In this document: one piece after another, positions 42,242 through 47,575 of the stretch | Layout: each line of letters opens with the position of its first letter | Numbering within the stretch: position 1 is the stretch's first letter | Origin: Escherichia coli | GTDB lineage: Bacteria > Pseudomonadota > Gammaproteobacteria > Enterobacterales > Enterobacteriaceae | Direction: 5' to 3' (one strand) | DNA: 64,000 bases | NCBI RefSeq assembly: GCF_003334255.1 | Contig: NZ_QOWU01000007.1 | Position numbers and translations under genes: made by a program | The notes under the pieces: model-generated | Told to the model about the DNA's origin: nothing | Databases searched by the model: none | Seen by the model: only the letters and a program-made list of their open reading frames with translations

Positions 42242-45200
42242 TTACACCTTTTCCACATTCACAAGGAAGGACTTAAACTCCGGCGTCTGCGTGTTCGCAT
42301 CACCAACGAATGGCGTTAAAGTATTGGCAATAAAGCCTTTTTTAGCTACGCCTTCATAGCCCCAGTGAATCGGAATACCGATGGTATCGATATCTTTGCC
42401 GTTCGCTTTCAGCGTGCGAATACGTTTGGTCACCACCGCTTTGGCTTTGATATAGCCACGGTTGGAGGAGACTTTCACGGTATCGCCCTGGGCAATGCCA
42501 AGTTTATTCGCCAGCGACTCCCCGATTTCCACAAACTGCTCTGGCTGCAAAATCGCGTTCAACAGCGCGTGTTTGGTCCAGTAGTGGAAGTGCTCGGTCA
42601 GACGATAGGTGGTTCCGACATACGGGAACTTATCGGCTTTACCCAATGCTTCGGCGTCGTCTTTAAAGATACGTGCAGCCGGGTTCGAGATAACGTTTGG
42701 ATGCAGCGGGTTAGTTCCCAGCGGCGTTTCAAACGGCTCGTAGTGTTCCGGGAACGGACCTTCCGCCATCTTATCGAGGGCAAACAGACGCCCCATGCCT
42801 TCCTGCTGCATGATAAACGGCCCGACGCCGCTACCCGGAGGCGCTGCGCTGTAGTCCGGAATATCCCAGCCGGTCCACTTAGTGCCGTCCCATTTCAGCA
42901 ACTGACGCTTCGGATCCCACGGGTTACCCTGCGGATCTGCGGAGGCGCGGTTATACAGAATGCGGCGGTTAAGCGGCCATGCCCATGCCCAGCCCAGCGT
43001 GTTACCGAGGCCAGACGGATCGGCGTTATCACGGCGTGCCATCTGGTTGCCTTCCGGCGTCCAGCTACCGGCGAAAATCCAGCAGCCACAGGAGGTTGTA
43101 CCGTCATCGCGCAATTGGGCGAACGAACTAAGTTGTTGGCCTTTCTTGACGATAACCGCACCGGTTGCCGGATCGGTAATATCGGCCAGCGCCTTACCGT
43201 TGCTCTCCATCGCCACTTCTTCTGAAGATGGCTCATGCGGAATGGCGTAGTTCCATGTCATGTTGAGCACCTGGTCCGGGTTCGCGCCACCCTGTTCGGC
43301 ATACATCTTGCGCAAGCGCAGGAAGATACCGGAGAGGATCTCGCCGTCAGTCAGCGCAATCCCCGGGGCGTCCGCACCTTTCCAGTGCCACTGTAACCAG
43401 CGACCTGAGTTAACGATAGAACCGTTCTCTTCCGCGAAGCAGGTCGATGGCAGACGGAACACTTCGGTCTGGATCTTCGACGAGTCAACTTCGTTCAGCT
43501 CACCGTGGTTCTGCCAGAAGTTAGAGGTTTCAGTGTTCAGTGGGTCGATGGTGACGAGGAACTTCAGTTTCGACAGACAACCGATCACTTTGTTTTTGTT
43601 CGGGAATGAGGCAACAGGGTTAAAGCCCTGGCAGATATAGCCATTGACCTTGCCCTCTTTCATCATCTCGAAGTATTGCAGGACGTCGTAGCCTTTATCC
43701 CACTTCGGCAACCAGTCAAAGCCCCAGCTATTTTCCGCCGTCGCTTTATCACCAAAGAAGGCCTTCATCATAGAGACGAAGAATTTCGGGTAGTTGCCCC
43801 AGTAGTTTACCTGGCCTTCCAGCAGCGGTTTTGGCGTGTTGGCGGTAAGGTAGGTTTGCAGATCGGTCTGCTTCTCGCTTGGCAGCGTCATGTAACCTGG
43901 CAGGCTCTGCGACAGCAGCCCCAGGTCCGTCAGCCCCTGAATATTGGAGTGACCGCGCAGGGCGTTAACGCCGCCGCCTGCCATCCCCATATTGCCGAGC
44001 AGCAGCTGGATCATCGCCATCGTACGAATGTTTTGCGCACCAACGGAGTGTTGCGTCCAGCCGAGGGCATACAGGAACGAGGCAGTTTTATCGTGAGCAC
44101 TGGTTTCTGCGATGTATTCGCAGACTTTCAGGAACGCGTCTTTTGGCGTACCACAGATGTTTTCAACCACATCTGGCGTGTAGCGGGAAACGTGCTGTTT
44201 CAGCAAGTTCCACACGCAGCGCGGATGTTGCAGCGTGGTATCGCGTTTGGCGAAGCCGTTTTCGTCCAGTTCATAAGTCCAGGAGGATTTATCGTACTTG
44301 CGTTTTTCCGCGTCGTAGCCGGTGAACAGGCCATCTTCAAAGCCGTAATCCTCACGCACGATCAGGCTGGCGTTGGTATAGGCTTCGGTGTATTCGCGGT
44401 TGAATTTTTCATTGTTCAGCAGGTACAGCAATACGCCTGACAGGAAAGCAATGTCAGTACCGGAACGAATAGGGGCATAGTAGTCAGCTACCGCCGCCGT
44501 ACGCGTAAAGCGAGGATCGATCACAATCAGCTTCGCGCCGTTGTGAATTTTGGCTTCCATCGCCCAGCGGAACCCGACCGGGTGAGCTTCAGCGGCATTA
44601 CCGCCCATCACCACGACGAGGTTGGCGTTCTTGATGTCGACCCAGTGGTTGGTCATCGCACCGCGACCAAATGTTGGAGCAAGACTTGCTACCGTTGGTC
44701 CGTGTCAGACACGCGCCTGGTTGTCGACCGCGAGCATACCCAGCGCGCGGGAGAATTTTTGCGTTAAATAGCCGGTTTCGTTACTCGACGCGGAAGCACA
44801 CAGCATCCCGGTGGAGAGCCAGCGGTTAACAGTCACGCCTTCGGCGTTTTGCGCAATGTAGTTAGCATCGCGGTCTTCTTTCATCAGTTTGGCGATGCGA
44901 TCAAACGCCTCTTCCCAACTGATTTGCTGCCATTTATCAGAACCTGGCGCACGGTATTCCGGAAACTTCAGACGGCTTTCGGAGTGGATGAAATCCACCA
45001 GGCCAGCGCCTTTCGGACAAAGTGCACCGCGGTTGACCGGGTGATCCGGATCGCCTTCGATATGGAAGATAGATGCTTTGGCGTTTTTTGCTCCGTCACC
45101 GAGGCTGTACATCAACAGCCCACAGCCTACGGAACAATAGGTGCAGGTATTACGGGTTTCGCGGGTGCGCAGCAGTTTATACTGCCGGGTTTCCGCGAGT

Positions 45201-45292
45201 GCTACGCTGGGTGCAAAACCCAGTGCCGCTGCCGTGGTGCCTGCCATACCGCCAGCGCAGATCTTAAAGAACTGCCTTCTGCTGACCTGCAT
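42242..45292 (-). CDS. fdoG: Formate dehydrogenase-O catalytic subunit; selenoprotein with an in-frame UGA (Sec) at 44705-44707 and a Tat signal peptide
   Basis: Track ORFs 44705-45292 and 42242-44656 are in frame across one TGA (...DNQARV-U-HGPTVASLAPTFGRGAMTNHW...), 1016 codons in total. N-terminal twin-arginine motif (SRRQFFKICAGG). Confidence 0.95.
44655..44707 (-). other. Selenocysteine UGA codon plus downstream SECIS-like region of fdoG
   Basis: UGA followed by CACGGACCAACGGUAGCAAGUCUUGCUCC..., analogous in position to the fdhF-type bacterial SECIS directly 3' of the UGA. Confidence 0.65.
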
Positions 45293-46319: not shown

Positions 46320-46471
46320 TTAAAATAAGTCCTGCGAAATATATTAAATTGCAGGACTTATTCATTTCGTGAATTTTATTATTTTATTTATAAACAAAAT
46401 GCGTGTAGTGGCGTTTTCTTTTTTCATTTATTATGTTCACTCTCTTATCTATATATTTATAAGGCAATTAA

Positions 46472-47527
46472 ATGAAAAGGAATTTATTATCTTCCGCTAT
46501 TATAGTCGCCATCATGTCCCTCGGTCTGACGGGTTGTGATGATAAAAAAGCCGAAACAGAAACGCTCCCGCCTGCCAATAGTCAACCTGCCGCACCAGCT
46601 CCTGAAGCGAAACCTACTGAAGCTCCCGTTGCAAAAGCAGAAGCTAAACCTGAAACACCTGCGCAACCGGTGGTCGATGAACAAGCGGTTTTCGACGAAA
46701 AAATGGATGTCTATATCAAGTGCTACAACAAGTTACAGATCCCGGTACAGCGCAGTCTGGCGCGTTATGCTGACTGGCTGAAAGATTTTAAACAGGGGCC
46801 TACCGGTGAAGAGCGTACTGTTTATGGCATCTACGGCATTAGTGAATCCAACCTCGCTGAGTGTGAAAAAGGCGTAAAAAGTGCTGTGGCGTTAACGCCT
46901 GCGCTGCAACCAATTGATGGCGTGGCGGTGAGTTATATCGATGCTGCCGTGGCGTTGGGTAATACCATTAACGAAATGGATAAATATTACACCCAGGAAA
47001 ATTATAAAGACGATGCGTTTGCGAAAGGGAAAACGCTGCACCAGACATTCTTAAAAAATCTGGAAGCCTTTGAACCTGTAGCCGAATCTTATCATGCGGC
47101 GATTCAGGAAATTAATGATAAGCGTCAGCTTGCGGAATTGAAAAATATTGAAGAAAGAGAAGGGAAAACATTCCACTACTACTCTCTGGCAGTCATGATT
47201 TCAGCGAAACAAATTAATAACCTGATATCGCAAGATAAGTTTGATGCAGAAGCGGCAATGAAGAAAGTGTCTGAACTGGAAACGCTAGTGGCGCAGGCCA
47301 AAGAAGCGGATAAAGGCGGCATGAATTTCTCGTTTATTAATTCGGCAGGCCAGTATCAACTCGAGGCTAAAAAATACGTTCGCCGCATCAGAGATAAAGT
47401 CCCGTACTCTGACTGGGATAAAGAGCAACTTCAGGACGCAAACTCAAGCTGGATGGTCGAAGACTCTTTCCCGAGAGCATTACGCGAGTACAACGAAATG
47501 GTTGATGACTATAATAGCCTGCGTTAA
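46472..47527 (+). CDS. yiiG: DUF3829-family lipoprotein YiiG
   Basis: 351-aa ORF with a signal peptide and lipobox (LGLTGC), then a Pro/Ala-rich linker. Confidence 0.85.
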   Translation: MKRNLLSSAIIVAIMSLGLTGCDDKKAETETLPPANSQPAAPAPEAKPTEAPVAKAEAKPETPAQPVVDEQAVFDEKMDVYIKCYNKLQIPVQRSLARYADWLKDFKQGPTGEERTVYGIYGISESNLAECEKGVKSAVALTPALQPIDGVAVSYIDAAVALGNTINEMDKYYTQENYKDDAFAKGKTLHQTFLKNLEAFEPVAESYHAAIQEINDKRQLAELKNIEEREGKTFHYYSLAVMISAKQINNLISQDKFDAEAAMKKVSELETLVAQAKEADKGGMNFSFINSAGQYQLEAKKYVRRIRDKVPYSDWDKEQLQDANSSWMVEDSFPRALREYNEMVDDYNSLR

Positions 47528-47545: not shown

Positions 47546-47575
47546 GCAGTGTCGGATGCGGCGCATCCGACACAG
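47546..47575. repeat. REP-like palindromic hairpin between convergent yiiG and frvR
   Basis: GCAGTGTCGGATGCGGCGCATCCGACACAG. Confidence 0.7.

Follow-up and report, generated by a model that had tools for sequence, protein, structure and literature searches.

YiiG of Escherichia coli, a predicted inner-membrane-tethered helical lipoprotein of the DUF3829 family whose gene survives only as a pseudogene in about 28% of genomes

A single open reading frame (ORF), uninterrupted from its ATG start through 351 codons and a stop, occupies positions 46472..47527 (+) of a 64,000-nucleotide stretch of Escherichia coli DNA (contig NZ_QOWU01000007.1), the whole of which is referred to here as the window. 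The same DNA is named yiiG in RefSeq annotations of E. coli, where its 351-amino-acid product is called a "YiiG family protein" and the gene lies between fdhD and frvR. A preliminary description of the locus, made from the letters of the sequence, had proposed this name, which is borne out by the annotation and by megablast, which located the gene in 5406 of the 5426 complete E. coli genomes compared; the sequence in strains G1/2, G6/7, and G8 is the same (100%), and that in K-12 MG1655 is 99.9% identical. The Pfam model PF12889 (DUF3829) aligns with residues 73-349 over model positions 2-285 of 285 (E 3.7e-103), a full-length family match, and when 1.84 billion representative proteins were searched with a profile, 2007 relatives were returned at E values up to 0.001. 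Because the family match is this strong and the family has about 2000 representatives, a chance ORF is excluded; yiiG is a known, already annotated gene, and its identity is very nearly certain.

Searches beyond the family returned little. NCBIfam gave only subthreshold, lipoprotein-like matches to the N terminus, a PDB sequence search gave nothing below an E value of 0.07, the PADLOC anti-phage defense models gave no match at E values up to 0.01, and Rfam gave no credible noncoding RNA match overlapping the gene. In the literature that was searched, yiiG was mentioned as a whole word in 14 scattered places, and no functional study was found. The preliminary description had assigned no function to the gene, and our fold, family, neighborhood, and literature searches likewise yielded none.

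The N terminus of the protein, MKRNLLSSAIIVAIMSLGLTGC, reads as a lipoprotein signal peptide of 21 residues followed by Cys22 (46472..46537, + strand), as delimited by regular expression and hydrophobicity profile. A basic start (MKR) leads into a hydrophobic core whose 11-residue Kyte-Doolittle mean rises to 2.7, and this is followed by the sole lipobox match in YiiG, L19-T20-G21-C22, which fits the pattern [LVI][ASTVI][GAS]C and is kept in enterobacterial and most other homologues. The single match after a hydrophobic core upholds the earlier lipoprotein call, which had been made from the LTGC lipobox, and its position marks Cys22 (codon 46535-46537, +) as the residue predicted to be lipidated and to begin the mature protein. 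The residues at +2 and +3 of that mature protein are Asp23 and Asp24 (46538..46543, +), a predicted Lol-avoidance signal. In E. coli, LolCDE fails to release lipoproteins that have Asp at +2 and Asp, Glu, Asn, or Gln at +3, so that they stay in the inner membrane, and Cys-Asp-Asp is the strongest class of this retention signal. Because the mature N terminus, C22-D23-D24, has this arrangement, retention in the inner membrane is predicted, and we regard it as quite probable that YiiG is an inner-membrane lipoprotein, both its lipidation and its location being predicted from the sequence. "DD" directly follows the cysteine in 52 of the 156 lipobox-bearing homologues, chiefly in Enterobacterales. 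No localization data for YiiG were found in the searchable literature.

Between the lipobox and the folded part of the protein lies a disordered tether of 47 residues (residues 23-69; 46538..46678, +), recognized by its composition (Ala 23%, Pro 21%, Glu 15%, and Lys 10%) and by an AlphaFold2 predicted local distance difference test score (pLDDT) below 50 over residues 1-67. Both properties agree with the Pro/Ala-rich linker of "about 45 residues" described previously. Fully extended, at approximately 3 Å per residue, such a tether would span roughly 140 Å by our estimate. Its length differs among alleles and species while the flanking parts are conserved, and a common E. coli allele has lost 15 bp of linker sequence relative to the window and encodes 346 amino acids. 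A tandem-repeat origin of the linker was considered and rejected, as Tandem Repeats Finder detected no DNA repeat.

Tethers of this kind are common in the family. Among 137 representatives with an intact N terminus, linkers have a median length of 35 residues (10th-90th percentile, 23-49) and are composed of 20% Ala, 10% Ser, and 10% Pro. At least two-thirds of these representatives combine a lipobox with a low-complexity linker, by a regular expression that missed several further members, and others begin with a transmembrane helix, or else with a plain signal peptide that runs directly into the domain with no linker. The presence of a lipobox, a transmembrane helix, or a signal peptide across the family implies that the DUF3829 domain is periplasmic, and from these N termini, membrane tethering is predicted to be its usual, not universal, state.

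The remainder of YiiG, residues 70-351 (46679..47524, +), is the DUF3829 domain, delimited by Pfam and AlphaFold2. The predicted structure contains nine helices and no strands, with a whole-protein mean pLDDT of 81.9 and blockwise means within the domain mostly above 90 (a few blocks lie at 70-89), confirming the earlier statement that the domain is predominantly helical. The longest helix, of 50 residues (181-230), would be roughly 75 Å in length (estimate). Among the best Foldseek matches in the PDB are 3rh3, 3iee, and 4yjw, structural-genomics proteins deposited without function, and the 50 best AFDB50 matches listed are all named DUF3829, YiiG family, lipoprotein, or uncharacterized protein.

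Conservation within the domain was read from 50 aligned homologues with identities as low as 34%, the window protein being the reference row. In this alignment, 24 columns are invariant, namely those of C84, N86, R98, Y99, W102, G109, P110, G112, E114, Y118, G119, C131, Y172, Y173, K179, D180, D181, G186, H190, E227, G231, K300, R304, and R307; E176, N177, and Y178 are nearly invariant. All of the family-invariant residues are retained in the window YiiG, including those of the GPTGxE loop and the YYxxENYKDD motif. The latter is part of the most conserved stretch, Y172-Y173-x-x-E-N-Y-K-D-D-x-F-A-K-G-K-x-L-H190 (46985..47041, +), whose conserved columns are invariant or almost so and which spans the end of helix 3, the next loop, and the start of helix 4. 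Most of the invariant residues belong to the long loop 103-124, to the beginning of helix 4, or to the C-terminal ends of helices 1 and 3, positions that would place them at one apex of the first bundle, so that, on the evidence of the predicted helix boundaries, they would form a single patch. Two of the invariant residues are the cysteines Cys84 (codon 46721..46723, +) and Cys131 (codon 46862..46864, +), and because both belong to an exported protein, their invariance suggests that they are partners in a disulfide.

The domain also occurs in other architectures. In one relative (P0131), encoded directly after an HSP70 gene, a cytoplasmic J-like domain is joined through a transmembrane helix to a periplasmic DUF3829 domain. 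The J-like segment was considered as a true J-domain and not accepted as one, since its Pfam match was weak (E 0.88) and the HPD motif is absent; we retain the term "J-like." Two neighborhoods (L013:3258-7010 and L014:3258-7010) show an HSP70 gene followed directly by a gene for a 669-amino-acid protein in which a J-like N terminus precedes a single transmembrane helix and a DUF3829 domain on the periplasmic side. The HSP70/J-like/DUF3829 arrangement may be a trans-envelope, chaperone-linked module. Another relative carries two DUF3829 domains in tandem, and the fusion and tandem architectures together are anecdotal hints that DUF3829 is used as a periplasmic module.

The intact copy of yiiG in the window represents one of several states found in E. 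coli populations. A segment of 470 bp (46416-46885) is present in 3916 of the 5426 genomes, and the other 1510 (27.8%) keep only yiiG nucleotides 415-1056, a remnant that RefSeq labels a pseudogene. Alignment traced this loss to a 478-bp deletion between two copies of the octamer GTGGCGTT, one at 46408..46415 (+), the upstream junction, and one at 46886..46893 (+), the downstream junction. The deletion takes part of the AT-rich spacer, the start codon, the signal peptide, the linker, and in all the first 138 codons, and presumably the promoter as well. Three copies of the octamer lie within 550 bp at yiiG, out of six on the + strand of the entire window, and the third (46949..46956, +) explains a further allele (protein cluster P0009) in which 63 bp are deleted in frame, copy 2 acting as the upstream and copy 3 as the downstream junction in this alignment. 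The 478-bp deletion is carried by human isolates, among them Nissle 1917 and an ST69 strain. In Nissle 1917 (L001:4555-6282), the yiiG remnant has a further internal deletion, the frv operon is absent, and a carbohydrate porin gene stands between the remnant and rhaM. Additional genomes have IS1 insertions inside yiiG, and an insertion hotspot for mobile genetic elements has been reported "near lipoprotein yiiG" in clinical collections (bioRxiv 10.1101/527788).

Intact alleles differ considerably from each other. A divergent yiiG/frvR allele, found in 147 genomes, has approximately 84% nucleotide identity, and its synonymous divergence (dS) of approximately 0.5 greatly exceeds what is usual within a species. 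Of the genomes with this allele, one was examined, E. coli DA33135 (L003:1-2781), and in it two genes are inserted between fdhD and yiiG: an "ATP-binding protein" gene and a gene for a 768-amino-acid hypothetical protein stand immediately upstream of yiiG, in the position that fdhD has in the window. The 768-amino-acid protein had no PADLOC match. Between the two intact E. coli alleles, the ratio of nonsynonymous to synonymous divergence (dN/dS) is 0.21 for yiiG, compared to 0.087 for frvR in the same genome pair, which indicates purifying selection, though relaxed relative to frvR. The dN/dS of fdhD is 0.04-0.06, in other genome pairs with saturated dS that allow a loose comparison only, and dN relative to Salmonella is 0.19 for yiiG and 0.115 for fdhD. 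The gene was deleted in the reduced-genome strain DGF-298 (PMC10652928). yiiG remains under constraint, weaker than that on its neighbors, and is clearly dispensable.

Structural features on both sides suggest that yiiG forms its own transcription unit. After the fdhD stop codon, a stem-loop followed by a U-rich stretch (46324..46362, +; 14-bp stem, -18.4 kcal/mol, z -5.4, with 0 of 200 shuffles folding equally well) is the probable fdhD terminator, setting yiiG apart from fdhD. Downstream, in the gap between the convergent yiiG and frvR, a GC-rich hairpin (47549..47573, assigned to neither strand) resembling a repetitive extragenic palindrome has an 11-bp stem within a 61-nucleotide fold (-20.8 kcal/mol, z -3.6) and is a probable bidirectional transcript end. 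With hairpins on both sides, yiiG looks monocistronic. The AT-rich region at 46363..46471 (+) contains its presumed promoter, read directly from a sequence whose GC content is 24% over 46320-46471 compared to 50.6% for the window; within it are a candidate -10 hexamer, TATCTA (46446-46451, +), and a Shine-Dalgarno sequence, AAGG (46461-46464, +). A consensus scan called no + strand sigma-70 promoter and no intrinsic terminator here, and the hairpins came from RNA folding.

The preliminary description had remarked that the position of the gene suggests no function, and comparison of neighborhoods leads to the same view. Salmonella and an enterobacterial relative of 48% identity keep the fdhD-yiiG order, with azlCD downstream in place of frv. 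In Undibacterium, Ottowia, and an alphaproteobacterium-like contig, the neighbors of yiiG relatives are unrelated to fdh genes and to one another. Because the adjacency is confined to Enterobacterales and is absent in beta- and alphaproteobacterial relatives, it is best seen as inherited synteny that offers no functional clue. Mobility was considered and rejected, since the plasmid matches are chromids, megaplasmids, or mislabeled chromosomes, 63 of 64 of them nonmobilizable. Elsewhere in the window, fdoG (42242-45292, -) is split by one in-frame stop into neighboring ORFs of 804 and 195 amino acids, at a place where RefSeq has a single 3051-bp coding sequence; the stop is consistent with the known selenocysteine UGA codon of the formate dehydrogenase-O alpha subunit.

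Several published surveys mention yiiG or its relatives. A QMS-seq study of E. coli listed loss of the yiiG start codon and two promoter substitutions under several antibiotics (PMC11742677), which map to window positions 46474 (G>T, destroying the start codon) and 46444 and 46449 (both C>A, promoter). By our reading, the promoter changes convert TCTTAT to TATTAT and TATCTA to TATATA, which are better -10 hexamers, so that their effect on expression would be opposite to that of start-codon loss. The start-codon variant was reported in 27 samples spanning all 12 sample columns, as was a neighboring metL variant (PMC11742677), and its presence across all columns suggests that it may be preexisting or systematic rather than drug selected. 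In Stenotrophomonas maltophilia, codons 194/195 of the homologue were altered independently, by frameshifts or by a substitution, in lines evolved with ciprofloxacin, tobramycin, and co-trimoxazole (PMC11047544), changes that may reflect adaptation to the medium. A MarA motif from chromatin immunoprecipitation sequencing was assigned to yiiG in enterotoxigenic E. coli H10407 (PMC5684230); this motif, GCGCGTTATGCTGAC, is located at window positions 46760-46774, inside the coding sequence, where it covers codons 97-101 and overlies the invariant R98-Y99-W102 region. Three DUF3829 proteins of Veillonella parvula were detected in an outer-membrane proteome study (PMC5491611).

We propose that YiiG, tethered to the inner membrane, serves as a binding module in the periplasm and is both accessory and dispensable; to this model as a whole we give slightly better than an even chance. 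According to this proposal, YiiG would be exported by Sec, lipidated at Cys22, and cleaved by signal peptidase II, and the Asp residues at +2 and +3 would hold it in the inner membrane. A disordered Pro/Ala/Glu/Lys-rich tether of approximately 47 residues would position in the periplasm an elongated, all-helical DUF3829 domain braced by a Cys84-Cys131 disulfide. The domain would act as a nonenzymatic binding or adaptor module for an envelope component or a partner protein, with a recognition patch composed of the end of helix 1 (R98, Y99, and W102), the GPTGxE loop, and the YYxxENYKDD-x-F-A-KGKxLH motif, and it would be produced from a monocistronic, accessory, and dispensable gene. The "binding module" element, which prefers binding over catalysis, is the more tentative part of the proposal, somewhat short of an even chance. 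Weighing against this proposal are the observations that the +2 Asp rule holds in Enterobacterales only, other lineages having G, K, or S at +2; that the invariant charged residues E114, E176, D180, D181, H190, E227, K300, R304, and R307 would suit an active site too; and that a survey of eight relatives, for which two contigs were too short to be informative, revealed no conserved gene neighbor pointing to a partner beyond the enterobacterial fdhD synteny.

The invariant set is unusually rich in E, D, H, K, R, and Y, is found mainly in loops and at helix ends, and is conserved from alpha- to gammaproteobacteria at 34-40% overall identity, as might be expected if DUF3829 were a tethered periplasmic enzyme, such as a transferase or hydrolase with an envelope lipid or polymer as its substrate, whose invariant acidic, basic, and His residues were catalytic. 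We consider this unlikely, as no enzyme family appeared among the sequence matches in NCBIfam, Pfam, or the PDB, the few enzyme chains among the fold matches represent generic helical-bundle likeness, the solved DUF3829-like structures were deposited without function, and the gene is lost in 28% of E. coli genomes without obvious cost. That same loss invites a quite different explanation, in which yiiG in E. coli is a decaying remnant without current function and the intact window copy has simply not yet been hit. The 5' deletion in 27.8% of genomes, the IS1 insertions and reported insertion hotspot (bioRxiv 10.1101/527788), the 63-bp in-frame deletion allele, and a dN/dS above that of frvR in the same genome pair all fit decay, yet the gene is intact in approximately 72% of genomes, its dN/dS of 0.21 reflects purifying selection, alleles separated by a dS of 0.5 are undisrupted, every family-invariant residue is kept, and undisrupted orthologues occur in E. 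albertii, E. fergusonii, E. marmotae, and Salmonella, making decay an improbable account of the gene. The losses could also be adaptive in themselves, if a tethered module reaching through the periplasm affects envelope permeability or stress signaling and its inactivation or down-tuning has been selected repeatedly. The hints in this direction are the 478-bp deletion in 28% of genomes, the IS1 insertions, the insertion hotspot, the start-codon loss, and the S. maltophilia mutations; the deletion may nonetheless be a single neutral inherited event, and repeated selection for loss strikes us as a little less likely still than enzymatic activity or decay.

Other alternatives concern where YiiG goes and what it meets there. 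If the protein were sorted to the outer membrane despite its +2 Asp, the tether would reach inward, as in LpoA, LpoB, or RcsF, and the succession of lipobox, long disordered linker, and globular domain does resemble LpoB. The weak NCBIfam match to the LpoB model (TIGR02722) that might be cited in favor scored 13.9 bits, far under the cutoff of 110.55, and covered residues 10-55 only, that is, signal peptide and linker; as Cys-Asp-Asp is established as the strongest inner-membrane retention class, we regard sorting to the outer membrane as very unlikely. An orphan periplasmic immunity protein directed against an envelope-targeting toxin could explain why yiiG evolves faster than the neighboring fdhD, why it is present in some strains and absent from others, and why some species have paralogues, including the three of V. 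parvula (PMC5491611) and extra ones of 33-39% identity in Salmonella. Such a role is highly improbable in light of the stable syntenic position of the gene in Enterobacterales, the strong conservation of the motif across classes, which would be unusual for an immunity protein, the lack of a PADLOC match, and the lack of an adjacent toxin or secretion-system gene in the contexts examined. Finally, Salmonella yiiG has been proposed to encode a type III secretion substrate, ranking sixth by a machine-learning score for secretion signals and appearing among candidates said to show InvA-dependent CyaA translocation (PMC3617162). The same predictor, however, gives high scores to TonB, RcsF, HflK, and FtsY, which suggests that what it detects is a low-complexity composition of the N terminus. 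The Sec/lipoprotein signal peptide of YiiG and its pair of conserved cysteines also argue against type III secretion, as does a spread of relatives through beta- and alphaproteobacteria, Pantoea, Rhizobium, Stenotrophomonas, and Xanthomonas that is tied to no single secretion system, and we find this the hardest of the alternatives to credit.

The gene belongs to the uncharacterized part of the E. coli genome, and nothing reported here would surprise a specialist. With approximately 2000 representative clusters, DUF3829 is a family that has solved structures and no assigned function, and a role for it would fill a gap in the inventory of the envelope. The gain from this analysis lies in sharper predictions, namely inner-membrane retention, a disulfide, and one conserved patch, and in a naturally occurring knockout allele suited to comparisons between strains. 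The preliminary description did not mention the Cys-Asp-Asp retention signal, the two conserved cysteines with the motif patch, or the pseudogene in approximately 28% of E. coli genomes.

Comparison to known systems helps to place YiiG among envelope proteins. BT_1908 (3rh3) and BVU_3067 (4yjw) are solved DUF3829-like and DUF3829 members that share its all-helical fold, and BF3319 (3iee), the second-best Foldseek match, was deposited merely as "an alpha helical protein." These Bacteroides structures have 11-15% identity to YiiG and template modeling scores (TM-scores) of 0.25-0.46, providing a family name without an explanation. The ligand-binding domains of Tar and Tsr and the sensor domain of TorS belong to the same fold class at 4-10% identity, a likeness that does not amount to membership and is generic enough to be shared by de novo designed bundles. 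Sensors of that type have flanking transmembrane helices and a cytoplasmic transmitter, whereas YiiG has a single N-terminal signal peptide and no further hydrophobic segment or domain. Closer parallels exist at the N terminus. AcrA and DcrB are E. coli inner-membrane lipoproteins with Cys-Asp-Asp, and they have in common with YiiG the lipobox context LTGC-DD-K and predicted Lol avoidance, although their mature domains are unrelated and neither family was matched in the NCBIfam, Pfam, or PDB searches. LpoA, LpoB, and RcsF differ from the prediction for YiiG in being anchored in the outer membrane, and the likeness to the Pro-rich spacer of TonB is one of composition alone. What YiiG has in common with LpoB, LpoA, RcsF, and TonB is the succession of an anchor, a long low-complexity spacer, and a folded domain, a design that implies a reach spanning the periplasm.

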